Shown here one piece after another: positions 27,201 to 39,554 of a stretch of 61,249 bases of DNA (the stretch's first letter is position 1; each line of letters opens with the position of its first letter). The notes beneath the pieces were generated by a model. It saw nothing but the letters and a program-made list of their open reading frames with translations, made no database searches and was not told the origin of the DNA. The translations under genes were made by a program, and so were the position numbers. Source of the stretch: a virus (taxonomy: Duplodnaviria > Caudoviricetes); IMG/VR virus record IMGVR_UViG_3300009419_000019, positions 1-61,249 of that record; one strand, 5' to 3'.

Positions 27201-28692
27201 CCCAGGCTTGAACGCAAAGAGCAACAAGACTGGCCCAACCGAAGCCGAGTTGGCCAAGTCTGCTCGTGAGGTCGAGGCTCTTGAAGATCGCGTGCTCGCG
27301 CTCGAAGGCCGCATCGAGCGTGCGGCATCGCAGACCTTGGACACACAGCTTCAAGGCGTGGACAAGAGCACGAAGGATCTGCGTGACGACATCACCACCA
27401 AGGTCAAGGATCTCCAAAAGCGCAACGAACTCCTGGCACGCGTGGACGAAGCCAACAAGGCCCTGCGTCTGCAAACGACCGAGAAGTTCAACAAGGAGAT
27501 CGCAACCGCCGAAGAGTCGTTGCAGCGTCAACTTGAGCAAGCCGAAGCTGCTGCTGGCCGCAAGTCCAAGGCAAGCCTCGATGACCGTCTGAATGCCGTC
27601 AAGCAGTCCTACGCGAAATACTTCCGCGAGGTGGACGACCTCATCGCCAAGCAACAGGCCAATGGTCTCGACACCACACAGACCCAGGCATCCCGCGACA
27701 AGATGGGCGGCATCGTCGGTGAGCTTCAAGGTCTTGAGGCCAAGAAGTTCTACGAAGAACGCATCAACGAGGTGATCAAGCAGCGTGCTCAGCTTGTTGC
27801 GGCAGTACGCGCACAACAGCAAGCGGGCACGATTGATCAGGACACGGCTGCTCAACGCATCAACGAGATCAACGCACAGTCACTTCCAACGATCACTGCG
27901 ATCAAGGATCAAGCTGTTGCTTGGGCTCAAGCCAACCAGCAGATTTTCGGCACACCTGAGTTGCAGCAGGCGTTCATCGCCAACATGCAGGCCATCTCGA
28001 CCGAGGCAAGCAACACGAAGAGTGAAATGACCTTGCTCCAAGAGAGCATGAAGAAGGGTCTGATCGAAGGCGTGGGCAAGGGACTGGATACCGTGATGCA
28101 GACCTTCGGTGAGGTCGCAGCAGGGCAGATGTCGTTGCGTGAAGGCTTCAACAGCTTGGGTACATCTGTGGCCCTGTTTGCTGCGCAGTTCATCCGTCAG
28201 ATCGCCATGGCCATCTTGCAAGCGATGGTGCTCAAAGCAATCATGGCCACGATCCCAGGCTTGAACGTGGCATCTGCTGCTTCGTCTGCTGGTGGTGTTG
28301 CCACTGCTGGTACTGCAAGCATCCCCGCCAACGTAGCTCACACAGGTGGCACAGTGGGCTCGCTTCAGCGTTCACGTTCTGCCCCGAGTGCTTGGTTCGC
28401 CAACGCACCGAAGTACCACACGGGTGGCATTGCTGGTCTCGCGCCATCCGAGTACCCCGCGATCTTGCAAAAGAACGAAGAGGTGCTCAAGGCGTCTGAC
28501 CCTCGCAACATCCTCAACGGTGGTGCTGCTGCCGGTGGTGGGCAACCTGCTGAACAAGCCCCTGTGCGCTTCGTGCTCGTGGATGACCGCAGCAAGATCC
28601 CTGATGCGATGAACAGTGCTGACGGTGAGCGGGTGATCCTGCAAACCCTGGTGCGCAACGCATCGACCGTTCGTAGTGTCCTGGGTCGCTGA
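24220..28692 (+). CDS. Tape measure protein
   Basis: 1490 aa, Ala-rich helical; QIFSKGKISAEELRQQLGERLP tape-measure domain; C-terminal YHTGG motif. Confidence 0.95.
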   Translation: MTDQKTIDLIIRASLEGKADLNTVTKAIKGLESALDAQTQAAKKGESSIDELKATLLSLEQVQRNLTRNSSLVKEFDALPTKVDRASRSVEKAKTAYEKLAEEQKKSATVTEEQSQKLFDLSAKYENAQKRLDTLITRQGALRTELQALGADTNDLSTFQQRLVQTSADLGVVYAKTKQSIASYADDVRSAREAQRALAAEQAAAAKEAQQFEAAEKRATAAANARAAAAQEVADALSNRRSESAAAGNQFNNDAADAARARELAQLRADITQRSEEQLAVEKQLAKNSALAKTADDAQQAARQYTSLARASADLAPKIISVRSAVEDILNPTKAANSTLDGLETRISDLAGTIGKINGPVKDYRETLVQLNETQKSLATQANLVDVYQRQVAALRSARDEFTTARAKVAEYAAAVRQGGDSGQQFTASLTQAQAAAQRAAQALQAQLQSTRDAREALRTAGIATNDLTTAQARLVGSSQQAKQAADDLGKAVKEYGLESEKAGGKSGKGIFGDEGRTTLSLAQRIRGEILALTASYVGLQGAISLATSSLDSFNSRAATRTVIGVGLQSTDKAQIDAEYAYIKGQADRIGLVFADTAKQYSKFAAAAAFAGRPREEIKFIFESFSEAGRVLNLTQDNLNGVFLALEQIFSKGKISAEELRQQLGERLPAVFQVAQEALKGQFPDLNKAIEKGQVGAENLVLIAQKYREMVGSQLPGATQSFAASQARLTNAIEDFKLAIADAGFVDAYAQAIGEVTKFLQSSDGQKFAEGLAQSFQAVLNVVLLIVKNFDEFGAVLGTIAALGAVKLFTDMAQSLVTLGVAARGAAVALTGIQKAALVLSAFIVGWQIGRYLNEKFVEVQAFGVALVTGMDIVWTNIKYGAQIMFAELPKYAENAGIAIENTLLKMVRGVMRALANIASAVGSEDFAKLYNKIADGLIEKSYKTTTDKAVALRKEMEDEIAKIKKIQGEMFDDIIAGQKKLDSAKKPASSTGFPGLNAKSNKTGPTEAELAKSAREVEALEDRVLALEGRIERAASQTLDTQLQGVDKSTKDLRDDITTKVKDLQKRNELLARVDEANKALRLQTTEKFNKEIATAEESLQRQLEQAEAAAGRKSKASLDDRLNAVKQSYAKYFREVDDLIAKQQANGLDTTQTQASRDKMGGIVGELQGLEAKKFYEERINEVIKQRAQLVAAVRAQQQAGTIDQDTAAQRINEINAQSLPTITAIKDQAVAWAQANQQIFGTPELQQAFIANMQAISTEASNTKSEMTLLQESMKKGLIEGVGKGLDTVMQTFGEVAAGQMSLREGFNSLGTSVALFAAQFIRQIAMAILQAMVLKAIMATIPGLNVASAASSAGGVATAGTASIPANVAHTGGTVGSLQRSRSAPSAWFANAPKYHTGGIAGLAPSEYPAILQKNEEVLKASDPRNILNGGAAAGGGQPAEQAPVRFVLVDDRSKIPDAMNSADGERVILQTLVRNASTVRSVLGR

Positions 28693-28694
28693 TC

Positions 28695-29618
28695 ATGATC
28701 TACACACCATTCGAGTTCCCCGTACCTGCACCGCACTCAGCCTCTTTCACCGATGGTGAGAAGGCTGTCTCCGTGGCCACGCCGCTCGCGTCTGCACCGG
28801 CTCGCTCTGAACGCATGATCAGCCGTTGGATCTACCTCGCGCCTGGGTTCTACACGATGCACGGCATCACGAAGACCTCGGGCACTTGGTTGCTCAACAG
28901 CGTGCGTCAGGCAGGCTCTACCCTGGTCGAAGAGAAGCAACTTCTGTTCACCACCCTCGCATCGCAAGGCGTGGTTGACCGGGAGTTCTACGTCAGCCGT
29001 GGTGGTGTCAAGAAGCTCGACATCATCTTGCGCAACATCTCAACGTCTGCCGGTGAGTGCTACGCCGCTTTCAACATCAAGCGCAGTGGGAATCTGATCT
29101 ACGCATCAGACAACGAAGGTTGGGTGGCCAGTGACACCAACAAGGTTCTCACGAGCCAGATGCCCGCCTTGCCCGATTACCGAAAGTCACTTCCGGTTTT
29201 CACGCTCACCCCGAACTGGCAAGGCGGCATCCTCGAAAAGCTGGAATACCTGACGAACGTGTTGCCTAGCAGCACGGACGCTGAGCAACGCCGGATGCTG
29301 CGTGTTCACCCACGGCGTTCGTTCGAGGTGTCGTTCTTGCGTGAGAAGGACGAGCGTGCTCGCCTTGACTCGTTCGTCTCGGGTCATGGGCATGAGCCGT
29401 TCCTTGTGCCCTTGTGGCATGAGGCAGTCCGCTTGCCGTATGGCGATCCAAAGGAAACCGCTGAGATTCCTTTCGATGGCTACAATCTCATCTCAAATGG
29501 CGCACACCTAAGCAACGGCTCTCAGATGTCTTGCGGCTTAGACCTGCTGTTTGACCTGATCTCCGATGGCTCCGTCACCTCTGACGGGACACAACTTTCT
29601 GACGGCTACGAGGATTGA
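28695..29618 (+). CDS. Distal tail structural protein, N-terminal half, fused to a short xDG-repeat tail
   Basis: PNWQGGILEKLEYLT..EQRRMLR.HPRRSFE...VPLWHE pattern of siphovirus distal-tail proteins, ending in SNG/SDG repeats. Confidence 0.65.
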   Translation: MIYTPFEFPVPAPHSASFTDGEKAVSVATPLASAPARSERMISRWIYLAPGFYTMHGITKTSGTWLLNSVRQAGSTLVEEKQLLFTTLASQGVVDREFYVSRGGVKKLDIILRNISTSAGECYAAFNIKRSGNLIYASDNEGWVASDTNKVLTSQMPALPDYRKSLPVFTLTPNWQGGILEKLEYLTNVLPSSTDAEQRRMLRVHPRRSFEVSFLREKDERARLDSFVSGHGHEPFLVPLWHEAVRLPYGDPKETAEIPFDGYNLISNGAHLSNGSQMSCGLDLLFDLISDGSVTSDGTQLSDGYED

Positions 29619-29620
29619 AC

Positions 29621-30304
29621 ATGGCCAACTTGACACCTACCCCCGACGAGAACGCAGATGTCTTCCAGTGGGATGGCCAAACGCCACTTATCGGTGGCTC
29701 GCCTACGGCACCGTTGAACCGTCAGGCACAAGCACTGCTGAATCGCATCGCTGGTGTGAAGGCGACACTGACGACAGCGATTGCCACAGTTGCATCGGCA
29801 GCACAGTCGGCTCAAGACGCAGTGCAACTGTTCCTTGGTTACCGGCAACTTGCGCAGATTCAGCGGTTCTCAACAGGTGCATTTGCATCCGGGACAACCC
29901 GTTTCAATTACGACAACACCGTTCCTCTGAGCAACGAAGGTGATCAGTACCTAAGTGTGACGATCCCGCCTCAAGACGCGAACAGTACATTGACGGTGAA
30001 GGTTCTGCTGAACTTCGGCATTAACGTCAGCGCCACAGCGGCAGTTGCCTTGTATGTTGACGACGAAACAGAAGCTCGTGCTGTGACAGCGAAGACATTG
30101 CCCAACAACGGGGACTCTGCCGGTCAGATGCTTCTCAGCTTCTCGATGGTTGCTGGTTCAACGTCTCCGAAGACGTTTAAGGTTCGCGCTGGTATTTTGG
30201 GTGCGCCTGTAGGCACTTTCTCAATCAACGGACTACCGAACCTTGGCGCGACATTTGGCGGGAAGATGATTTCATCCATCGAAGTTAAGGAGTATTTGCC
30301 ATGA
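29621..30304 (+). CDS. Tail fibre protein with myovirus-type N-terminus
   Basis: MANLT...Q...GG....NRQAQALLNR matches the common myovirus fibre N-terminal pattern; beta-rich C-terminus. Confidence 0.65.
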   Translation: MANLTPTPDENADVFQWDGQTPLIGGSPTAPLNRQAQALLNRIAGVKATLTTAIATVASAAQSAQDAVQLFLGYRQLAQIQRFSTGAFASGTTRFNYDNTVPLSNEGDQYLSVTIPPQDANSTLTVKVLLNFGINVSATAAVALYVDDETEARAVTAKTLPNNGDSAGQMLLSFSMVAGSTSPKTFKVRAGILGAPVGTFSINGLPNLGATFGGKMISSIEVKEYLP

Positions 30305-30567
30305 GCTACAAAGTCGTGATCGCCCAAGATGGTTCGGTGAAAGCATGTGGGCCAAACGTGCCTGAGTACGCACCCCATGTCCCAGCGGGTTGCCAGCTTG
30401 TTGTGCGTGACACAGTGAGCCTCGTCACCCTTGACCCGACTGCGCAGATCGCAGCCATCGAGGCAACGATCACACCTCGTCGCATGCGTGAAGCTGTGCT
30501 TGGCACAGACAACGGTTGGCTTGCCGCCGTGGATGCACAGATCGCTTCTTTGCGTTCACAGCTTTGA
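30301..30567 (+). CDS. Putative tail fibre assembly chaperone
   Basis: QIAAIEA..TPRRMREAVLG...WLAAVDAQIASLR; directly follows the fibre gene. Confidence 0.6.
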   Translation: MSYKVVIAQDGSVKACGPNVPEYAPHVPAGCQLVVRDTVSLVTLDPTAQIAAIEATITPRRMREAVLGTDNGWLAAVDAQIASLRSQL

Positions 30568-30587
30568 ACTGAGTCAGGGTCTAGCCT

Positions 30588-32291
30588 GTGGCCAATCGCA
30601 TCATCCACACCAACTACGGACTGCGGGCGCTGGGTCGTGCCTTGCCATCCCTGACCCCTATCACTGTTGCCAACGTAGCCGTTGGTGCGGGTGTCACAGA
30701 TCCAGATCGTGCAGCTACCGGGCTTGTCGATGAACGCTTTCGCTTGCCACCAGCGTTCGTGTACTACGCCGACAGCGAGACGCTCGAAGTCATCATCGAA
30801 GTGATCCTGCCGGTGACGACAACGCAGTTCACCCCGCGTGAAGTTGCTCTGTTCGATTCAACAGGCGGTTGCCTCGCGGTCGGTGAGTTGAATCGCTTTA
30901 CCAAGCTGCCTGATGACCGCATGCGCATTCGCATGCACTTGGCCTTGCCGAAGAACGGTCTGATCGCAACCAGCAGCGGTGTCGTTGGTGACCCCAAGCG
31001 CATCGAGTTCGCACCGGGCACCCTGGTTGATCGTGAGTTCGTGGCCAACACGATGGCACTGCTCTACAACCGCGATGCCGTCACACCGGAGGTGGTCAAG
31101 ATCGAGAGCGTCACCGACAGCGCGATCACCCTCACTGACGCACCAACACGCTTTTGGCCCTCTGGCTCACGGCTTGCGCCACTGCGCGTTGCACGGTTCG
31201 ATGCGCTGCCACAGATCGCCAATATGACGGATCGTGTGGGCACAAGCACTGCCCGCTTTGAGTTGCTTGAGAACTCGCCATACGAGCCGGTTGAGGATTG
31301 GGGCTACTGCGCACCCGTCTTCAACTTCCCGCTTGATTGGGCGGACTCCGTGACCGTGAGCCACGACCGCAACGTCAGCATGGTTGAGAGCGTCATGGGT
31401 GATCGGCACATTGTCGATCCAGGCCAGCGTGATCGAGTGATGACGCGTGCTGGTCTCAAGCTCATTGGTCGTGAGCAGGCTTGGGCCTTCCGTCGCTTCC
31501 TCTCGGCTGCACGCGGCAAGACCGTTCGTTTTTGGGCACCGTCGTTCACCATGGACATCGAGCCCATCGGTGCCATCAGTGGTGACTCCTTCGTTGCACG
31601 AGACACCGGCTTTACCGAAGCCTTCGTCAAGCCACAAGACAGCCGCTTGATGATCGCCATCGTCTTCACGGACGGTCGGCCCACGCTGTACCGCAAGCTC
31701 ACTGGCGTCGTGCGCGTGCTCACGGGTGAGCGGTTCTACCTCGAAGTGCCGCTGCCGCTGATCAAGCGTGAGGACATCGACAGCGTGCAGTTCATGATCC
31801 CCTCGCGCTTCGATCAAGACACGTTCGAGTTCCGCCACCACGTCGATGACAGCAAAGCCGTGTCCACGTCTGTCGTGCTCAAGTCGTGCGATGTGACGGG
31901 CATGCCGGTCATCGAGTGCTTCACGACATCGAAGCCGTACCCGATCCATTCGAGCGAGATGATCGTAAGTGGCATGACGGTCACAGGCGGCTTGCTGCAA
32001 GAGGTGGCACCACCGTTCGCCGGTATCGCGCCAAACATGAACGTCTCAGGTGGCCAGCTTGTCGAGCCCCTGACGGACATGAGCTTCGAGCCTGAAGCCA
32101 TGGACGTTGGCGTCAGCGTCACAGGCGGCACGCTCGCGGCATCGCTCACGCAGATCACGGCAGAGCCAGATGGCATCGTCGTCCTCATGGACGTGTCGAG
32201 CGGTCAACTCAAGAACGCCCTCATCACGATCACCGACGAGCCACACGGGCTCGAAACTTCTCTCAGCGTTACCGGAGGTACATTGGAATGA
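30588..32291 (+). CDS. Fusion: P2 gpH-like collar domain (DUF3751-like) plus C-terminal half of distal tail protein
   Basis: N-terminal TNYG..AVGAG...REVALFD..G...AVG; then EVVKIESV..WPSGSRLAPLRVAR..ARGKTVRFWAPS..RFDQDTFE. Confidence 0.65.
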   Translation: MANRIIHTNYGLRALGRALPSLTPITVANVAVGAGVTDPDRAATGLVDERFRLPPAFVYYADSETLEVIIEVILPVTTTQFTPREVALFDSTGGCLAVGELNRFTKLPDDRMRIRMHLALPKNGLIATSSGVVGDPKRIEFAPGTLVDREFVANTMALLYNRDAVTPEVVKIESVTDSAITLTDAPTRFWPSGSRLAPLRVARFDALPQIANMTDRVGTSTARFELLENSPYEPVEDWGYCAPVFNFPLDWADSVTVSHDRNVSMVESVMGDRHIVDPGQRDRVMTRAGLKLIGREQAWAFRRFLSAARGKTVRFWAPSFTMDIEPIGAISGDSFVARDTGFTEAFVKPQDSRLMIAIVFTDGRPTLYRKLTGVVRVLTGERFYLEVPLPLIKREDIDSVQFMIPSRFDQDTFEFRHHVDDSKAVSTSVVLKSCDVTGMPVIECFTTSKPYPIHSSEMIVSGMTVTGGLLQEVAPPFAGIAPNMNVSGGQLVEPLTDMSFEPEAMDVGVSVTGGTLAASLTQITAEPDGIVVLMDVSSGQLKNALITITDEPHGLETSLSVTGGTLE

Positions 32292-33187
32292 ACCATGCAA
32301 ACGTCAATTTCGCAGGACGCTACAAGCTCACTGCCACCAAGCCCGATGGCACTCAACGAGTTCTGTCCGATTGGTTCAACAACCTTGTGCTGCTCAACGG
32401 TCTGAACCGCATCGGCACTGGCGGCATCATGTCGATGGCCCATGTCGGTTCAGGCTCGTCAGCACCGGCCTTCGGTGAGAGCTTGCTGAGCAACCTCATC
32501 GGTACATCCGAGAACGTGCCGGGTGCTGACATCACGGGCACGAACCTCGGTGAAGGCTATGCCTACTGCCGACGCACCTTCCGCTTCCCGGCTGGCACGG
32601 CCACGGGGAACATCTCGGAGGTGGGCGTGGGCTGGGCATCCAACCAACTGTTCAGTCGTGCCCTGGTCAAAGACGGTGCTGGTGATCCAACCACGGTGAC
32701 CGTGCTTGCCGATGAGGTGCTCGACCTCGTGTACGAGCTTCGGGTCTACTGGCCAACGACAGACAACACCACGACCGTGACCCTCGGTGGCGTGGGCTAC
32801 AGCGTCACGGTGCGTGCAAGCGACGTTGACCAGTGGGCGACAGGCACGTCCATGTTTGCTTACCTGTTGGCCAACGGTGTGACCAACGGGCTTCAAGACG
32901 TGTTGGGCTACAACGGGAGCTTGGGCACGATCACAGAAGGCCCCGGTGGTGACTTCGTTGGTCGCCCTGCCGTGAAGACCTTCGACGGCTCGTACTCGAA
33001 CAACAGCCAAGAGCGCAACATGAAGCTGGTCGCTGGCCTGGGTGACATCACCGAGTCGGTCAGTGCGTTCAACGTGATCTGCCCATTGGGTGTGTTCAAG
33101 ATGGGCTTCACCCCGCCGATCCCCAAGACCGGCAGCAACATCCTGACGATCAACTTCCGCCTGTCCTGGGCTCAGAAGGAAATCTGA
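32288..33187 (+). CDS. Minor tail structural protein
   Basis: DWFNNLVL.NGLNRIG, RFPAGTATGNISEVG, LFSRALVKD..GDPTTVTVL.DEVLD. Confidence 0.75.
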   Translation: MNHANVNFAGRYKLTATKPDGTQRVLSDWFNNLVLLNGLNRIGTGGIMSMAHVGSGSSAPAFGESLLSNLIGTSENVPGADITGTNLGEGYAYCRRTFRFPAGTATGNISEVGVGWASNQLFSRALVKDGAGDPTTVTVLADEVLDLVYELRVYWPTTDNTTTVTLGGVGYSVTVRASDVDQWATGTSMFAYLLANGVTNGLQDVLGYNGSLGTITEGPGGDFVGRPAVKTFDGSYSNNSQERNMKLVAGLGDITESVSAFNVICPLGVFKMGFTPPIPKTGSNILTINFRLSWAQKEI

Positions 33188-33780
33188 TGCTGCCGTCAAA
33201 CGCACCATCTGCCTTCCCACTGCCGGGGCGCTTCTTGAGCCCCGATGATCGCGTCACGGGTGATCTGATTGACCATGAGCGGGGCGGCATCGGATTGAAC
33301 GACGCCAGCCTTGGTCGTGACGTGCAGGAGTGGTCTTGTTGGTACGACGGCGTTGAGGTGATCGCTGCCCCTGACGGTGGCCAGCAGTACCAGCTTTTCA
33401 CGCATGCCGGGATCGAGCAACTGAGCTTCACGTTCGATCAGAACATGCGCCCCCTGGTTGTGTTCATCGCCGCTGGCGAGACTAAGTTGTGGTGGTATGA
33501 CCCGATGGCATCGGCCTACGTGTCCACCAGCTTTGGCACCAGCTTCAAGAGCCCACGCTTGGCCATGGATGACAAACGTGCGATGGCCACAAGCACATCG
33601 GACGTGATCTTCGCTTACATTCGCTATGACAGCGGTTCATCCTCCCACGCTCTGTGTTACCGGCAGCAGCGGGATCGCTATCAGACCGAGCGTGTACTGC
33701 GCACGGGCCTCTCGTCGAGGACGCGCTTGAAGAACATCGGCATGTCCTCAAACCTGCGCTTCCAGTTTGAGTTGGTGTGA
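33187..33780 (+). CDS. Minor tail structural protein
   Basis: FTFDQNMRP, LWWYD, DDKR and YRQQRDRY motifs of siphovirus tail-tip modules. Confidence 0.75.
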   Translation: MLPSNAPSAFPLPGRFLSPDDRVTGDLIDHERGGIGLNDASLGRDVQEWSCWYDGVEVIAAPDGGQQYQLFTHAGIEQLSFTFDQNMRPLVVFIAAGETKLWWYDPMASAYVSTSFGTSFKSPRLAMDDKRAMATSTSDVIFAYIRYDSGSSSHALCYRQQRDRYQTERVLRTGLSSRTRLKNIGMSSNLRFQFELV

Positions 33781-34866: not shown

Positions 34867-35075
34867 GCGAGCCAATCATCGTGACCGTTGCCGACGTGCG
34901 TGCGTGCAACCTGTGCGTGCGTGGTGCCCGTCAGTGGTTCAGCCTGCATGGTTTGGACTTCTCGACGTTCCTCATCCACGGCTACCCCATTGAAACCATC
35001 GAAGCCACGAACGATGCCTTGGGCACGAAAGTGGCCACGTATGCACGTGCTCGTGCAGCAGGAGAAGAAGCATGA
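34863..35075 (+). CDS. Small tail assembly protein
   Basis: CVRGARQWF..HGLDFSTFL..G pattern. Confidence 0.8.
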   Translation: MSEPIIVTVADVRACNLCVRGARQWFSLHGLDFSTFLIHGYPIETIEATNDALGTKVATYARARAAGEEA

Positions 35076-36664
35076 GCCGTTGGCATCGTCATGAGTGGGA
35101 CATGCTGCCCGAGCGGGCTTTCCAACCCCGTGGGCCACATGGCCAGATGACCCTTGAAGGTGGGGGCGGTGGTGGCGGTGGCTCACAAGTCATTGGCTAT
35201 CGCTACTCCTTTGGCATCCACATGGGTGTGTGCCGTGGCCCTGTTGATGAACTCGTGGCCATCCGTGTCGGTGACAAGTCGGCATGGACAGGCAGTGTCA
35301 CGGGCTCAGGTTACTTCCCGATCAACAACTACAACCTGTTCGGTGGTGACAAGGGCGAGGGTGGCATCCAGGGTGAGGCCCATGCGATGTTCGGTCATCC
35401 TGCCCAATCGAGCTTGCCCCAGCTTGAGGCAATGACGGGTGTGGCACAGCCTGCCTTTCGCGGCATGTTCACCTTCTTCTTCGACGGCATCATCTCTGCG
35501 ATCAACCCGTACCCGAAAGCGTGGAAGCTGCGCGTTCGCCGGATCATCCAGGGCTGGCAAGCTGACACGCTGCCCACCTGGGCCTTGAGCTACGCCAAGA
35601 TCGTCATGGTGCCGTCTGACGCTGCTGCGTTGGGCACCGGCTACGGGGACACGGACATCCATGCGATGAACCCTGCCCTGATCATCTACGAGTGCCTGAC
35701 CAACCGTGAGTGGGGTCGAGGTTTTCACCCAAGCGCACTCGACACCGAGGGCACGTTCCGCCAAGCCGCACAGACCTTGTACGAAGAAGGCTTCGGCATG
35801 TGCATCAAGTGGTCGCGCAAGGACTCGATCAAGTCGTTCATTCAGGGTGTGCTCGATCACATTGCAGGCACGCTCTACACGGATCGCACGAGCGGTCTGA
35901 TCAAGCTGCGGCTGATCCGTGACGACTATGACCGTGACACGTTGCCGCTGTTCACACCCGAGAGCGGGTTGTTGGAGATCACAGGCAACACGGTCAGCAA
36001 CAGCGGTGAGTCGGTCAACGAGATCCAAGTCAAGTACCGGCACCCGGTGACCAACGAGATGCGGATCGTTCGCACTGACAGCCTCGGTGCGATCCGTGCT
36101 GCCGGTGGCGTCAACAACCCGAGCACCCGTGACTACCCTGGCTTGCCGACAGCAGAGCTTGCCTTGCGCGTGGCTGAGCGTGACTTGCGCACCGTGGCCA
36201 CCTCGCTTCGCCGCTACTCCTTCACGCTAGATCGCCGGGGCTACGCGATCTACCCTGGCCAAGCCATTCGCATCGCTGACCCGTCAACGCTGGTGCCCGA
36301 CACCGTGGTGCGCGTTGGCAAGCTCGACGACGACTTCGAGAGTGGTCGCATCAAGGTCACAGCCGTGCAAGACGTGTTCGGTCTGCCGTCTGAGAGCTTT
36401 GGTGGCACGGTGGGTCAGACGTGGACGCCACCTGACAACAAGCCCTGCTTGTCGTATCACCGTGTTGTCGAGGCTCCGTACTTCATGGTTGCCCGCAACA
36501 CGTCGGCTGCTGACTTCGCCTACGTCGATACAACGTCGGCGGGCATGCTGACGATGTGCAACGAAGGCAAGCCACTCAACGGTGCTTATGACATGGCCGT
36601 TCGCATCGGTGGCTCCACCACGGACGACAACCCGCCTGATGGCTCCTACAACTGCCCGATCTGA
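35072..36664 (+). CDS. Central tail tip protein, N-terminal part
   Basis: GYRY.FGIHMG..RGPVD, LFGGDKGEGG, NPYPKAW, MNPALIIYECLTNREWG, LIRDDYD. Confidence 0.85.
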   Translation: MSRWHRHEWDMLPERAFQPRGPHGQMTLEGGGGGGGGSQVIGYRYSFGIHMGVCRGPVDELVAIRVGDKSAWTGSVTGSGYFPINNYNLFGGDKGEGGIQGEAHAMFGHPAQSSLPQLEAMTGVAQPAFRGMFTFFFDGIISAINPYPKAWKLRVRRIIQGWQADTLPTWALSYAKIVMVPSDAAALGTGYGDTDIHAMNPALIIYECLTNREWGRGFHPSALDTEGTFRQAAQTLYEEGFGMCIKWSRKDSIKSFIQGVLDHIAGTLYTDRTSGLIKLRLIRDDYDRDTLPLFTPESGLLEITGNTVSNSGESVNEIQVKYRHPVTNEMRIVRTDSLGAIRAAGGVNNPSTRDYPGLPTAELALRVAERDLRTVATSLRRYSFTLDRRGYAIYPGQAIRIADPSTLVPDTVVRVGKLDDDFESGRIKVTAVQDVFGLPSESFGGTVGQTWTPPDNKPCLSYHRVVEAPYFMVARNTSAADFAYVDTTSAGMLTMCNEGKPLNGAYDMAVRIGGSTTDDNPPDGSYNCPI

Positions 36665-36666
36665 TC

Positions 36667-37489
36667 ATGGCCACCTCCGACTACACCGTCACCGCTACCT
36701 CGATCCCGTTCTGCCCGAACGCGGCCTTGTCGTCTGCCATTGCCCCACTGACCACGGTCATCCCGATCACGGGCTACCGATCTGCCGGCATTGAGGAAGT
36801 CGTTGCCGGTGAGGCTGCGATGATCAACGACGAGATCGTTCGCATCGAGAGCTTCAGCCCTGTCTCGATCACCGTGGCCCGTGGCTGCGCTGACACGATC
36901 CCCCAGGCGCACGCAGCAGGCTCGACCATCTGGTTCTTCGACGACAGCTTCGGCAATGACGCTCGTGAGTACGCCGGGTCTGAGACCATCGCTGTGAAGT
37001 TGCTTCCGAAAACGGCCAGTGCCCAGGTGCCCATTGCCAACAGCACACCGGCCAATGTGACGTTCAACTTCCGCTTTGCCCGTCCTTACGCACCCGGCAA
37101 GGTCGAGGTCGATGGTGAGCCGTTCACTGCCGTGAGCATCGTTGGCCCTGCCAATCCTGCTTTGAACCTGACCTGGGCGCACCGTGATCGCGTCAGCCAG
37201 TTTGACCAGTTGATCGACCACAGCATGAGCAGCGTCGGCCCCGAGGCTGGCACGACGTATGTTGTGAAGGTCTACAAGGCTGACAACACGCTCGTGCGCA
37301 CCGTCTCAGCCATCACCGGGACATCCTGGGGATTACCCCTTGGCCACGGCGAGAAGTGACTTCGGGATCACGGTGGGTGCCGGTGCTGCGTTGACAGCCG
37401 GCTACCTCACGCTTGAGTCCGTGCGCGACGGCTACGTCTCGTGGCAGAAATACCGGGTTGAGTTCCAAGTCAGTAACGCCGCAAGTTGA
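36667..37489 (+). CDS. Tail tip protein, C-terminal part; frameshifted at the G4 run 37328-37331
   Basis: ARGCADTIP..H and LTWAHRDR; ORF stops at 37359, but the +1 frame continues to the expected LESVRDGYVSWQ C-terminus and TGA at 37489. Confidence 0.75.
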
Positions 37490-37573
37490 TTTTTGCGGGT
37501 GTTGGAAAAACGCAGCTTGTGCGTACAATGAGCGTCCAAATGGTTGATTCGTCAACATAACTTTGGAACGCCT

Positions 37574-37996
37574 ATGCAAAACAGCCAGCTTAATCCGGTG
37601 GAAGCGATGGTGGCGTTGCTCTTGCTGGTCTTCTCACCGGAAGCTGCCAAGATCATCGGCCCCTACGCAGTGATCATCCTCTCCGCGACGACGGGAGCCG
37701 CTTGGTCTCTCGGTCGCAGGCAACCGACAGAGCGCAATGGGGCGCTGTTCTTCATCTGCAAGATCATCTTCACGGCTTGCTTGATCACCGTGGCCCTGGC
37801 TGTACTGCTGACGGGCTACTTCAAACTCAACATCGACATCACTTGGTTGCTTGCCCCCATCGGCTTGCTCATCGGCGGTGTTGGCGAGGATTGGAATGAT
37901 CTGATCAAGTGGGTTTGGAGCAAGGTCAAGAACAACATTCCGGGTTTGAAATCGGATGTTCAGGGTGCCACAGGAGATGACAATGCACAGCGTTGA
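37574..37996 (+). CDS. Holin-like membrane protein
   Basis: Several hydrophobic segments; first gene of the lysis cassette. Confidence 0.65.
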   Translation: MQNSQLNPVEAMVALLLLVFSPEAAKIIGPYAVIILSATTGAAWSLGRRQPTERNGALFFICKIIFTACLITVALAVLLTGYFKLNIDITWLLAPIGLLIGGVGEDWNDLIKWVWSKVKNNIPGLKSDVQGATGDDNAQR

Positions 37997-38282
37997 ACTT
38001 TGGGCCTCTGCGAATCTGACCATCTGTGCAGGCTGCTTTTGGGCTTGCGTGTGCCGCCTCAACACGATGACGTGTGCGGTGCCCAAGAAGGTCCGACTCC
38101 AATTCGTCTTGATTCTCGTCGGTGCGATGGCCAGTGGCCTTCAGCCGGTGTTGTTTCAACAGTGGCCGGGAGTGGGGCAAACCCTGTTCTCGGCTGCTGT
38201 CTTTCTCGGTCTGCTGTTGTCCATGTCGAGATGGCGTGACGGGCCACCTGAAGACCTCATCTGCAAGGGAGAGCGCAAATGA
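37983..38282 (+). CDS. Second holin / antiholin-like membrane protein
   Basis: About three hydrophobic segments; directly before the endolysin. Confidence 0.6.
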   Translation: MHSVELWASANLTICAGCFWACVCRLNTMTCAVPKKVRLQFVLILVGAMASGLQPVLFQQWPGVGQTLFSAAVFLGLLLSMSRWRDGPPEDLICKGERK

Positions 38283-38710
38283 CTCAGATCACCTTGGCCC
38301 AGTACTGGATGGGTCGTGATGGCACAAACCCGTTCGATCTCAGCACGCAGATCCGCAAGAACGCTGAAGTGCTGCTGGCGCTGGTCAACAAACTCATCGC
38401 TGTGGCCGAAGCTGACGGTGTGCAGTTCCACATCAACCCGGTGCGCAAGAGCAATTTGACGAGCGGTTGGCGTCCACCATCGGTTAACGCCACCACCAAG
38501 GGTGCGGCTGTGAACTCACTTCACATGACCGGCCAAGCGGTTGACGTGTACGACCCTGACGGTGACTTCGACGAGTGGCTCATGAGTGACCGTGGCCAGC
38601 AAGCGATGAAAGACCTGGGAATTTGGCATGAGCATCCAGCCGCCACAAAAGGCTGGACGCATTTGCAATCCAAGCCGCCCAAGTCCGGTCGTCGCACCTT
38701 CTACCCATGA
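38279..38710 (+). CDS. Endolysin, peptidase M15 family
   Basis: SGWRP..N....GA..S.H..G.AVD and W.H Zn-peptidase motifs. Confidence 0.85.
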   Translation: MTQITLAQYWMGRDGTNPFDLSTQIRKNAEVLLALVNKLIAVAEADGVQFHINPVRKSNLTSGWRPPSVNATTKGAAVNSLHMTGQAVDVYDPDGDFDEWLMSDRGQQAMKDLGIWHEHPAATKGWTHLQSKPPKSGRRTFYP

Positions 38711-38718
38711 GACCAACC

Positions 38719-39042
38719 ATGAGCTACAAAGGCAAAGGTGTCTATCACGCTGGCCCTGGTGGCATTGAAAAGCCGGGTGACTTTGGTTGGCGAATTGATA
38801 TTGGCCGCGAACAAGTGGATGGCATTCAGCGAGACGCTGTTGCCCAGGTGACATTTGTGCAGCACTGCCCGAAGTATGGAGTGTGCATGATCAAGGTTCA
38901 TCAAGCTCCACCAGATCAGGCTAAAGCCATTTGGCAGTGGGACGGCAATTGGGAAGCTCCTACGATTAACCCATCTATCGGGTGTGACAACGCACCGCGA
39001 TGTGGATCACACCGAACCATTGTGTGCGGTGTACCAACCTGA
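38719..39042 (+). CDS. DUF6527-like Cys/His protein
   Basis: HCP..G, WQWDGNWEAPTINPSI, C..H...G pattern. Confidence 0.55.
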   Translation: MSYKGKGVYHAGPGGIEKPGDFGWRIDIGREQVDGIQRDAVAQVTFVQHCPKYGVCMIKVHQAPPDQAKAIWQWDGNWEAPTINPSIGCDNAPRCGSHRTIVCGVPT

Positions 39043-39050
39043 GACCAACC

Positions 39051-39554
39051 ATGCTGATCCCCACCGGATACAAGGTTCTCGCTGGTGCCGCTCTTGCGGC
39101 CCTTTGCGCTTTTGGCATCTGGTCTTATGGCGAGATGCGCTACGCCGATGGCCAGCAGTTCGAGAAGTCAGTCAACGACGCATTGGCCCTGACCAAGAGC
39201 GAAGACGAACGCCACCTCGAAGCCAACGTGACCACTGACAAGGATGACCGCTATGACGAATACATCGAAGCACGGGATCGTGCGATTGATGCTGCCGCTG
39301 CTGCTCACACTGAGCTTGGTCGGTTGCGCAACGACCTCGCCCGTTACCAGCGTGGAGCCAGCCAAAGCACCGGAACCCAATGCCGAGTTGATGAAGCAGC
39401 CGCGCTCGCTGAAAGCCTCGCAAGCTGCGCAGAACGACATCAAGCAGTGGCGAGAGACGCTGAACTCGACGCAGAGCAAGTGATCGGCTTGCAGCAGTAC
39501 ATCGAGACGATTGCCCCGATCTGCATCCGTGGTGTAACGCCACTTCCAAACTAA
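39051..39554 (+). CDS. Inner-membrane spanin (Rz-like)
   Basis: N-terminal TM segment, coiled periplasmic domain, QVIGLQQYI near the C-terminus. Confidence 0.85.
   Translation: MLIPTGYKVLAGAALAALCAFGIWSYGEMRYADGQQFEKSVNDALALTKSEDERHLEANVTTDKDDRYDEYIEARDRAIDAAAAAHTELGRLRNDLARYQRGASQSTGTQCRVDEAAALAESLASCAERHQAVARDAELDAEQVIGLQQYIETIAPICIRGVTPLPN
39253..39483 (+). CDS. Outer-membrane spanin lipoprotein (Rz1-like), embedded in Rz
   Basis: Signal peptide with lipobox LVGC, Pro-rich mature part, alternative frame inside Rz. Confidence 0.8.
   Translation: MTNTSKHGIVRLMLPLLLTLSLVGCATTSPVTSVEPAKAPEPNAELMKQPRSLKASQAAQNDIKQWRETLNSTQSK

Follow-up and report, generated by a model that had tools for sequence, protein, structure and literature searches.

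A distal tail protein divided between two polypeptides, probably by fibre-mounting parts of contractile-tail type, in a Chi-like siphophage

Tail-fibre genes are exchanged horizontally between unrelated phages (P2, Mu, P1, lambda, T4), and in the classical exchange it is the fibre genes or their distal parts that are swapped, at existing fibre loci. The distal tail protein (DTP) of the JBD30 type is described as a trimer that makes up the ring placed between tail tube and hub; each chain has two ring beta-sandwich domains, III and IV, and the trimer thereby mimics a hexamer (PMC11445458). In JBD30 gp49, domain III comprises residues 175–251 and 321–356 while OB domain V comprises residues 252–320, and the same account describes the DTP as helping to hold the side fibres gp47 and gp48 by an N-terminal loop of its own (PMC11445458). 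A different mounting is described for P2, where the flexible C-terminus of gpI tethers the N-terminal adaptor of gpH and is inserted between the gpH adaptor chains (bioRxiv 10.64898/2026.09.14.750843). The 'evolved' Dit proteins of lactococcal and streptococcal siphophages are described as carrying inserted carbohydrate-binding modules (PMC7533335, PMC9692632).

The window analysed here, a stretch of 61,249 nucleotides, is the complete genome of a Chi-like siphophage. The locus of interest consists of four ORFs, A to D (Table 1). ORF A (28695–29618, 307 aa) begins 3 nt after the end of the tape-measure gene, and ORF A and ORF D (30588–32291, 567 aa) are followed by BR0599-type hub and Phage-tail_3 proteins, as in Chi. 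The pieces of the DTP are therefore in the gene position typical of the family, directly 3' of the tape-measure gene and 5' of the hub. ORFs E and F belong to annotated tail-fibre families which, in this subgroup, lie between the DTP and the hub; they were found in 13 of the 22 related IMG/VR loci, and a search for solved relatives of the two gave none.

Table 1. Positions in the window of the divided DTP, the inserted parts and the neighbouring genes.
Feature	Coordinates	Strand	Basis
Tape-measure protein gene, 1490 aa	24220..28692	+	phrog_2335, E 4.9e-183; position as Chi gp25
ORF A residues 1-249: N-terminal DTP part, domains I-II and first segment of III	28695..29441	+	phrog_1082, Chi gp26, 8vjh_B, 8rk3_U
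Left junction, ORF A residues 250-262 (GDPKETAEIPFDG)	29442..29480	+	comparison with unsplit P0009
ORF A residues 263-307 and stop: DG-repeat tail, two blocks of x-[DN]-G-x-x-x	29481..29618	+	hhalign against gpI tails; motif counts
ORF B, 227 aa from ATG: short fibre/receptor-binding protein, 42-residue N-anchor and variable remainder	29621..30304	+	anchor alignment, HMM
ORF C, 88 aa: accessory, overlaps the stop of B (ATGA)	30301..30567	+	no Pfam/PHROG family
ORF D residues 1-133: P2 gpH-type fibre adaptor ('collar'), about residues 1-125, and short linker	30588..30986	+	PF12571
ORF D residues 134-440: remaining DTP, opening with the second GDPK	30987..31907	+	phrog_1082, Chi gp26, 8rk3_U
ORF D residues 441-567: C-terminal extension, VTGGTL-type repeats	31908..32291	+	alignment with unsplit relatives
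ORFs E (299 aa) and F (197 aa)	32288..33780	+	phrog_4176, E 1.7e-64; phrog_4950, E 2.3e-47

An earlier note made from the sequence had read ORF A as a DTP that gives way to repeats and ORF D as a return to the distal-tail pattern, and profile searches agreed with both readings. Residues 164–260 of ORF A match phrog_1082 positions 505–601 (E 2.8e-27) and residues 20–258 match residues 22–250 of Chi gp26 (31% identity, E 4e-35); past LWHEAVRLPYGDPK the protein consists of SNG/SDG repeats up to the stop codon. Residues 147–432 of ORF D match phrog_1082 positions 604–892 (E 3.4e-56), and the DTP part of this ORF corresponds to Chi gp26 residues 301–551. Since the match ends at position 601 in A and starts at 604 in D, the two profile matches adjoin, and one family match is spread over two ORFs 969 nt apart. 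The solved chains were matched by both ORFs, 8vjh_B with E 1.5e-29 for A and 2.4e-16 for D, and 8rk3_U with E 5.5e-9 for A (8rk3_U residues 176–256) and 6.4e-18 for D (8rk3_U residues 274–556).

In the alignment to JBD30, ORF A residues 168–248 correspond to residues 176–256 and ORF D residue 150 to residue 274. This alignment puts the break at the loop from which OB domain V branches off ring domain III in the solved homologue, a position which means that domain III must be rebuilt from both polypeptides. Domains III and IV are thus not found together on one chain in the window, the chain being broken inside domain III. The remaining domains fall in residues 134–440 of ORF D: both OB domains (V and VI), ring domain IV and the later of the two segments of domain III. 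The VTGGTL-type extension that follows is also present in unsplit relatives and so lies outside the insert.

The two halves had been supposed to form normally one polypeptide. This is the case in Chi (gp26, one gene, 562 aa), XAP3 (one ORF of 1,701 nt) and JBD30, the solved chains 8vjh_B and 8rk3_U being single polypeptides of 562 aa and 567 aa, and the DTP of BcepNazgul is also unsplit. Of the 22 related IMG/VR loci, 2 are interrupted by contig ends; a single ORF spans the junction in 18 of the others, and the remaining 2 have the divided form seen in the window. The architecture of ORF A was seen in 1 of the best 150 of 976 matches, the other 149 being single polypeptides, so that homologues are not routinely split at this position. 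Inspection of short matches showed that P0029, P0168 and P0024 run through the junction and that P0067 stops before it. The split architecture is common to the window and two other genomes, these being three independent genomes of 59–61 kb, and was found in 7 further D-type clusters and 8 further A-type clusters. A hub-protein tree with its root on Chi and XAP3 unites the three split genomes in one clade (SH-aLRT 100) and places this clade, together with unsplit lineages, inside a set of 21 rows (support 92). The split has a single origin and is nested among unsplit relatives.

These results bear on the possibility that the two-gene form is ancestral or an artefact, either an assembly chimera or a broken, non-functional pseudogene. 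Every record is a metagenomic assembly, and no isolate of the clade was present in the phage collection or the bacterial genomes searched, which speaks for this possibility. However, the same architecture recurs in the three independent genomes and in the further D-type and A-type clusters, the frames are open with low dN/dS, and Chi, XAP3, JBD30, BcepNazgul and the 18 loci are unsplit with the split clade nested among them. This explanation is hardly credible and has largely been refuted already.

The start of ORF D had been described as a P2 gpH-like collar domain, and residues 5–107 do match the phage tail-collar fibre N-terminal domain of Pfam (PF12571, E 1.1e-10, 42.1 bits against a gathering cut-off of 23 bits). 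The closest named matches were the fibre N-termini of Mica, Arya, ep3 and phiRSP; identity to the N-terminus of Mica gp16 was 36% (E 3e-10), and 30 columns, the whole of IHTNYGL among them, are invariant in an alignment with the Mica and Arya fibres. Mica and Arya have genes for sheath and tube, and for gpV/W/J/I, in their genomes. Within 5 kb, baseplate or sheath markers of Mica type were located in 68 of 78 IMG/VR loci containing relatives of the adaptor, and two of the loci without a marker, when checked, had baseplate-wedge genes. The inserted domains therefore have the affinity to contractile tails that was looked for. In ORF D, which starts in the window with a GTG behind a weak ribosome-binding site, the adaptor is followed by DTP domains (residues 134–440) and not by the shaft and tip of a gpH-type fibre, and the gene does not stand beside wedge genes of gpJ/gpI type. 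The adaptor is under purifying selection, its dN/dS between the relatives L004 and L005 being 0.073 against 0.066–0.078 for the DTP parts.

The stop of ORF A is separated by 2 nt from ORF B. The start of ORF B was listed as TTG at 29615, but the ATG at 29621, preceded by GAGGA, fits the MANL/MADL starts of relatives, in keeping with the fibre gene with a MANL start that had been noticed after the first ORF. The N-anchor has 15 invariant columns over three siphophage and four myophage proteins. In L004 and L005 the first 49–52 residues are 73–86% identical while the remainder of B and ORF C are unrelated, and the bodies in relatives differ, being either a phrog_4492 tail fibre or an RCC1 propeller. 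The body in the window matched no Pfam or PHROG family; for ORF B a structural lead in the Atlas pointed to Pgp3-C/TNF-like viral clusters (TM 0.67–0.70). An N-anchor common with annotated tailspike and tail-fibre proteins together with a variable body marks ORF B as a tail fibre or receptor-binding protein. Its description as a myovirus-type fibre is not upheld for the anchor, which is found in receptor-binding proteins of myophages and is not specific to them, as weak matches were also found to a podophage tailspike (E 2e-3) and to ORFs of jumbo phages. ORF C had been taken for a chaperone. This identification was not upheld, as ORF C matched nothing in Pfam and PHROG at E up to 1 and gave only Atlas leads of 0.87, under the threshold of 0.9, to Caudo_TAP and Phage_tail_APC clusters. 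Its position in L004 and L005 is taken by phrog_6034 proteins, and a role for ORF C in fibre assembly is a guess.

We interpret the DG-repeat tail of ORF A as a descendant of the C-terminal tether found on baseplate wedge proteins of gpI type. An hhalign comparison of this tail with the gpI tail gave an end-to-end alignment (score 20.1, P 2.2e-4), and none of 300 column shuffles reached this score, the highest being 15.1. Only the last 22 residues of ORF A align to gpI tails. An HMM search between the two had the gpI C-terminus of L106 as its top match with non-significant E-values (1.4, then 0.2), and the reverse search from the gpI tail to ORF A gave an E-value of 1.1 with no score for the window's own A. 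The likeness is short and repetitive, and convergence on the repeat motif may account for it. ORF A matched no Pfam family at E up to 1, hence no Tail_P2_I body (PF09684). Of the 1404 ORFs in the siphophage set, the only ones with [DN]G.{4}[DN]G at the C-terminus are the three A proteins and a single low-complexity ORF. The tail is conserved in 9 protein clusters, its repeat positions being kept down to 51% overall identity.

The insert between the DTP halves, about 1.5 kb long and in frame within the DTP gene, comprises the DG tail of A, the fibre gene B, ORF C and the PF12571 adaptor of D. In Mica-like myophages a gpI gene whose product ends in a DG tail precedes the gene of a receptor-binding protein with an N-anchor of B type, and the PF12571 fibre gene comes third; ORF A likewise ends in a DG tail and is followed at once by a gene with this anchor. 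The agreement in order points to a contiguous graft from the baseplate region of a contractile tail. An HMM of the B anchor, used on 9286 ORFs, matched, in five loci, the ORF that immediately precedes the PF12571 fibre (E-values 7e-7, 2e-5, 3e-5, 2e-3 and 0.04). The DG motif ends 5 of 76 gpI-like ORFs, exactly those of the same five loci, in a raw count uncorrected for kinship among loci, and was found at the C-terminus of only 5 of 2916 ORFs of at least 100 aa, all of them gpI. GC3 was 0.56–0.65 in the insert parts against 0.68–0.77 in the neighbouring tail genes. The window itself gave no match to gpV/W/J/I, sheath or tube of Mica (best E-value 0.14), and wedge (gpJ/gpI body), sheath and spike genes are absent from it. 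The proposal in the earlier note of contractile-tail parts grafted into a non-contractile tail is supported, both by the insert order shared with myophages and by the absence of the markers from the window. The likeness of the A tail to gpI and the shared gene order go beyond what that note contained.

At the left junction the DTP-derived sequence ends somewhere within residues 250–262 of ORF A. The tetrapeptide GDPK occurs at both junctions, in GGCGATCCAAAG at 29442 and in GGTGACCCCAAG at 30987, and had been likened to an aged duplication. The pair is present, with 9 of 12 bases shared and all three mismatches at third codon positions, and since GDPK is not conserved at the corresponding site of the unsplit P0009, P0010, P0011 and Chi it is not a family motif. 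A longer repeat is weak, however (ETAEIPFDG in ORF A against RIEFAPG in ORF D), and MAFFT on the junction DNA did not align the copies in register.

With moderate confidence, the explanation favoured for the whole locus is that a baseplate-fibre block from a contractile tail split the DTP, and that the tail of A and the adaptor of D now mount fibre B. One illegitimate recombination event would have moved a contiguous stretch of P2/Mica type that began at the 3' end of gpI and reached into the 5' end of a gpH-type fibre gene. From the alignment to JBD30 alone we infer that the ring would be assembled from three A–D pairs, the two chains of each pair making up domain III in trans, and that the two new termini, C-terminal in A and N-terminal in D, would emerge side by side at the ring rim. 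By analogy with P2, in which the gpI C-terminus tethers gpH, the gpI-type tail of A would tether the N-anchor of a B trimer, giving up to three side fibres, and the fibre probably docks on both the A tail and the D adaptor. The D adaptor may contribute to holding the tail or the fibre, this role being the least certain step. The body of B together with ORF C would form an exchangeable host-range cassette.

It could instead be that only the fibre cassette is functional and that the A tail and the D adaptor are mere leftovers of recombination with no part in mounting. Illegitimate recombination commonly leaves partial genes, and the A tail is less constrained than its flanks between L004 and L005 (dN/dS 0.31; amino acid identity 67% against 92%). 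Against this, purifying selection acts on the adaptor just as on the DTP core, the tail repeat positions are kept across the 9 clusters in spite of the low overall identity, and in myophages the DG tail goes together with the B anchor. Such leftovers are decidedly unlikely.

The selection on the adaptor would also be expected if the gpI-type tail of A and the gpH-type adaptor of D bound each other and held the split halves of the ring together, with B docking elsewhere or secondarily. The A tail and D adaptor flank the break exactly, and because the gpI tail of P2, inserted between gpH adaptor chains as described (bioRxiv 10.64898/2026.09.14.750843), binds the PF12571 adaptor itself, this arrangement fits at least as well. 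On the other hand, a PF12571 fibre is present in 64 of 64 loci with gpI-like ORFs, a count that follows from the use of that domain to find them, but the DG tail only in the five B-anchor loci; it is thus the B anchor, and not the adaptor, that the DG tail follows. The native adaptor moreover works as a trimer, whereas the trimeric ring implies that D would supply single copies 120 degrees apart. This alternative is considered unlikely.

If mounting of B by the A tail and the D adaptor is correct, this small Chi-like group reveals one route by which a complete fibre mounting can pass between tail types. It is also proposed, more tentatively, that the gpI DG-repeat tail and the 42-residue anchor make up a self-sufficient, portable socket and plug able to equip a structurally unrelated siphophage ring with side fibres, the ring tolerating a cut in a beta-sandwich and rebuilding from two polypeptides. 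On this more tentative reading the clade would be a natural experiment on fibre mounts crossing between contractile and non-contractile tails, and the DTP loop an insertion site for engineering the host range of laboratory phage strains.

The nearest known systems share parts of this arrangement. Chi gp26 (PDB 8vjh) and JBD30 gp49 (PDB 8rk3) have the same profile, the same position after the tape-measure gene and the same hub neighbours as A and D together, but they are single chains, whereas here the chain is broken in ring domain III with two foreign terminal additions; the JBD30 fibres gp47 and gp48 are unrelated to ORF B. The P2 baseplate fibre mounting, and its Mica-like variant with two receptor-binding proteins, resembles the locus in the gpH-type PF12571 start of D, the gpI-like DG tail of A and the order tail, receptor-binding protein, adaptor. 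There the tail and the adaptor are on the wedge protein and the fibre shaft, while here both are fused to a siphophage ring protein and the wedge, sheath and spike genes are absent. In the 'evolved' Dit proteins, as far as they are described in PMC7533335 and PMC9692632, a peripheral loop of the tail-tip ring protein likewise takes host-adhesion additions, but these are in-frame domains of one polypeptide, whereas here the insertion brings in whole genes and divides the ring protein into two chains. Classical fibre exchange has in common with this locus the conserved N-terminal anchor, the swappable receptor-binding body and transfer across morphotypes. It differs in that here the docking parts have apparently travelled with the fibre, and the recipient gene does not encode a fibre.

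By profile and pairwise alignment, the distal tail protein (DTP) of the window is divided between two ORFs, A and D, whose coordinates are collected in the table; each element of the observation in the earlier note was borne out. ORF A starts 3 nt past the tape-measure gene and its residues 164-260 matched positions 505-601 of PHROG 1082 in a profile search; residues 147-432 of D matched positions 604-892. Residues 22-250 of Chi gp26 (562 aa) align to A 20-258 and residues 301-551 to D 191-435. These alignments indicate that A and D are two parts of a single DTP. As the earlier note described, A follows the DTP pattern up to ...LWHEAVRLPYGDPK and then switches to SNG/SDG repeats, after which it stops. 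The P2 gpH-like collar domain which the note placed at the start of D is recognised as Pfam PF12571 (E 1.1e-10; score 42.1 bits, cut-off 23), and the DTP pattern resumes at ...GVVGDPKRIEF. Rejoining of A and D by frameshifting or splicing was ruled out because they are separated by 969 nt and two complete genes, B and C. GDPK occurs at both junctions, with 9 of 12 bases identical, and is not conserved at this place in unsplit relatives. Only this motif is clearly duplicated; a long, 13-codon target duplication was considered and set aside, as the remainder of the repeat is too weak to claim.

Coordinates of the ORFs and other features discussed in the text.
Feature	Record	Coordinates	Strand	Remarks
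ORF A	window	28695-29618	+	First part of DTP
GDPK, first junction	window	29442
ORF B	window	29621-30304	+	Candidate fibre
ORF C	window	30301-30567	+
ORF D	window	30588-32291	+	PF12571 adaptor and second part of DTP
GDPK, second junction	window	30987
C-terminal extension of D	window	31908-32291	+	D residues 441-567, VTGGTL-type repeats
ORFs E and F	window	32288-33780	+	phrog_4176 (E) and phrog_4950 (F)
Phage-tail_3 ORFs	window	35072-37359		530 and 230 aa, adjoining; phrog_1101 profile positions 73-545 and 546-763
Two unassigned small ORFs, then lysis genes	window	37544-39554		Right after the short second Phage-tail_3 ORF
Endolysin-like gene	window	38279-38710
Rz-like spanin gene	window	39000-39554
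Fibre at the B position	L005	6006-7682		RCC1-like beta-propeller
Extra residues in unsplit DTP	L017	8264-8580		About 105 residues

Start signals differ within the block. ORF D begins with GTG and a weak ribosome-binding site 21 nt past the stop of C, its relatives beginning with ATG; B and C have strong ribosome-binding sites (GAGGA and AAGGAG), with C overlapping the B stop codon. The copy number of the repeats in the C-terminal extension of D differs among relatives; D-type proteins have 514-567 aa and unsplit relatives up to 683 aa. The unsplit DTP of the related locus L017 has its extra residues between the equivalents of D residues 235 and 234, a second place of insertion tolerance in the DTP family.

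Chi and XAP3 each encode the DTP in one gene, and both solved homologues are single chains, which bears out the statement that the two halves are normally one polypeptide. An alignment-based scan of IMG/VR for DTP relatives returned 22 loci. One ORF of 498-683 aa runs across the junction in 18 of these; two loci, L004 and L005, are split like the window and the other two, L014 and L025, are cut by contig ends. A collection of 5.8 billion proteins held seven further proteins with the D architecture, PF12571 plus the C-terminal part of the DTP (53-60% identity), and eight further clusters with the A architecture including its tail (51-67% identity). A phmmer search with A against 1.84 billion representatives gave 976 matches at E up to 0.001 and, among the best 150, only P0014, the representative of the window's own clade, had 307 aa and matched to its end. 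Of four shorter matches inspected, three (P0029, P0168 and P0024) continue past the junction and one (P0067) stops before it. Homologues are not routinely split at this place. The hub protein was used as an independent marker, in a tree made by a quick method and rooted on Chi and XAP3. The three split genomes formed one clade (SH-aLRT 100) inside a 21-row set also holding unsplit lineages (support 92), with L025 labelled as unsplit though its DTP is cut. Taken together, the locus counts, protein searches and hub tree indicate that the split is rare and derived and that it arose once.

The DTP of phage JBD30 is described as a trimer (PMC11445458) whose chains each contain two beta-sandwich domains of the ring, III (residues 175-251 and 321-356) and IV, with an OB domain inserted in each; OB domain V comprises residues 252-320. 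In alignments, JBD30 176-256 corresponds to A 168-248 and JBD30 274 to D 150, which puts the break where the chain leaves domain III and enters OB domain V. Of domain III, A carries the first segment and D the second, and D also has OB V, domain IV and OB VI. Since domain III is divided between them, a ring would require A and D to complement each other. Given a break at the OB domain position, the new termini of both proteins would lie at the ring periphery, where this domain sits.

An alignment of the N-terminal domain of D to the tail-fibre N-termini of Mica (a Burkholderia phage) and Arya (an Enterobacter phage) has 30 invariant columns. This domain matched 21 phage records, in each case inside a protein annotated as tail or fibre. 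The best of these matches come from myophages with sheath, tube and gpV/W/J/I genes, in agreement with the myovirus affinity proposed in the earlier note. Relatives of the domain occur at 78 IMG/VR loci, and 68 of these have at least one such Mica-type marker within 5 kb; two of the marker-less loci were checked and both had baseplate-wedge genes. The window itself has none of the marker genes. By sequence, the adaptor profile found no solved PF12571 adaptor in the PDB, its matches to a thioesterase (E 0.012) and CheY (E 0.52) being taken as chance.

The gene order in Mica is gp13 (a gpI-like wedge protein with C-terminal LDG repeats), gp14 (tailspike), gp15 (41 aa) and gp16 (the PF12571 fibre). 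The first 42 residues of B, its anchor, share 15 invariant columns with the N-termini of four myophage proteins, Mica gp14 among them, and in a search of 9286 ORFs a profile of this anchor matched, at five loci, the ORF that immediately precedes the PF12571 fibre (E 7e-7 to 0.04). Of 76 gpI-like ORFs, exactly those in the five B-anchor loci end in the motif [DN]G.{4}[DN]G, and no other ORF does so among 2916 of at least 100 aa. The same ending in the siphophage set was confined to the three A proteins and one low-complexity ORF, of 1404. Profile-profile alignment of the A tail (residues 263-307, DG repeats) with the gpI tail covered 22 columns end to end (P 2.2e-4), and none of 300 column shuffles reached its score. 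Plain HMM searches between the two tails were non-significant, though the expected protein was the top match each time. With whole B as query, tblastn found nothing among phages at E up to 0.01, and with the A tail it gave one match at chance level (E 10). GC3 was 0.56-0.65 in the parts of the insert versus 0.68-0.77 in the flanking tail genes, which agrees, as weak evidence, with a foreign origin. Together, these results suggest that the insert is a single unbroken stretch of a Mica-like baseplate-fibre region, which would start in the 3' end of gpI and finish in the 5' end of a gpH-type fibre gene. The interpretation of the earlier note, fibre-attachment parts of a contractile tail grafted into a non-contractile one, is supported.

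Several genomes have kept the split arrangement, under purifying selection. In the closest pair, L004 and L005, the adaptor had a dN/dS of 0.073, similar to the DTP parts (0.066-0.078), and the A tail one of 0.31, values which are rough at a dS of 0.55-1.1. The repeat positions of the A tail are kept in 9 of 9 A-type clusters. The B anchor is kept in relatives at 73-86% identity and the B body and ORF C are replaced, with a phrog_4492 tail-fibre body at B in L004 and a phrog_6034 protein at the place of C in both L004 and L005, as is usual in host-range cassettes. For a receptor-binding body, the beta-propeller in the L005 fibre (PF25390, E 9.9e-32, below its cut-off; PF00415, E 4e-13) is unusual. 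As a lead only, the Atlas model of B resembles viral clusters with a Pgp3-C (TNF-like) head.

In P2, according to a preprint (bioRxiv 10.64898/2026.09.14.750843), each wedge has two gpJ and one gpI, and the flexible gpI C-terminus tethers the trimeric fibre via the N-terminal adaptor of the fibre. By analogy with P2, and because the DG tail co-occurs with a B-type anchor, we infer that the A tail may tether a B trimer at each of three A-D ring units; the D adaptor, beside the A tail, would help to grip or would bind the tail. Complex prediction of A 240-307 and D 1-140 with three copies of B as partner gave a score of 0.01, which speaks neither for binding nor against it.

The window is a complete-rated IMG/VR virus record of 61,249 bases whose tail module is collinear with those of Salmonella phage Chi and Xanthomonas phage XAP3 (Casjensviridae), in the order tape measure, DTP, BR0599-type hub, two small proteins and Phage-tail_3 protein. 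No near-identical record was present in the phage collection, megablast of 28000-33000 against phage records was without a match, and single-protein scans of viral and genome contigs found no close relatives of D. The Phage-tail_3 protein of the window stops early and lysis genes come next; the Chi gp31/gp32 fibre genes and the C-terminal part of Chi gp30 lack counterparts in the window. Lacking the latter part and a gp31 counterpart, the window likely has B, together with E and F, as its adhesins. ORFs E and F belong to annotated tail-fibre families, lie between DTP and hub in 13 of the 22 loci and are absent from Chi; E is in tandem duplicate in L006, L007 and L009, and no solved relatives of either were found by sequence. 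Chi gp30 is a single Phage-tail_3 (phrog_1101) protein of 1296 aa. The two-ORF form of the window recurs in every related locus examined (L004-L020), with second ORFs of 277 to 823 aa, that of the window being the shortest.

Tail-fibre genes are well known to be exchanged between phages; far less is understood of how a fibre finds a docking site on its new tail. In the window, the fibre seems to have moved with both adjoining attachment parts into the gene of an essential ring protein, making two proteins of one. If the proposed mechanism is true, it gives a concrete route for adhesion devices across the divide between myophage and siphophage tails, the DTP ring can assemble from split subunits, and the co-varying gpI tail and fibre anchor are a defined, directly testable interaction pair. 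A full-text literature search returned, among titles and abstract openings, no description of a split DTP. The parts are of known kinds, namely a Chi/JBD30-type DTP, a gpH-type adaptor and a receptor-binding protein with a modular anchor. What is new is the presence of whole genes within the DTP gene, the sharing out of a ring domain over two polypeptides and, apparently, the joint transfer, out of a contractile-tail baseplate, of a fibre and the attachment parts on either side of it. The 'evolved' Dit proteins have inserted domains and are still one chain, whereas in the window whole genes are inserted and the protein is made as two polypeptides.
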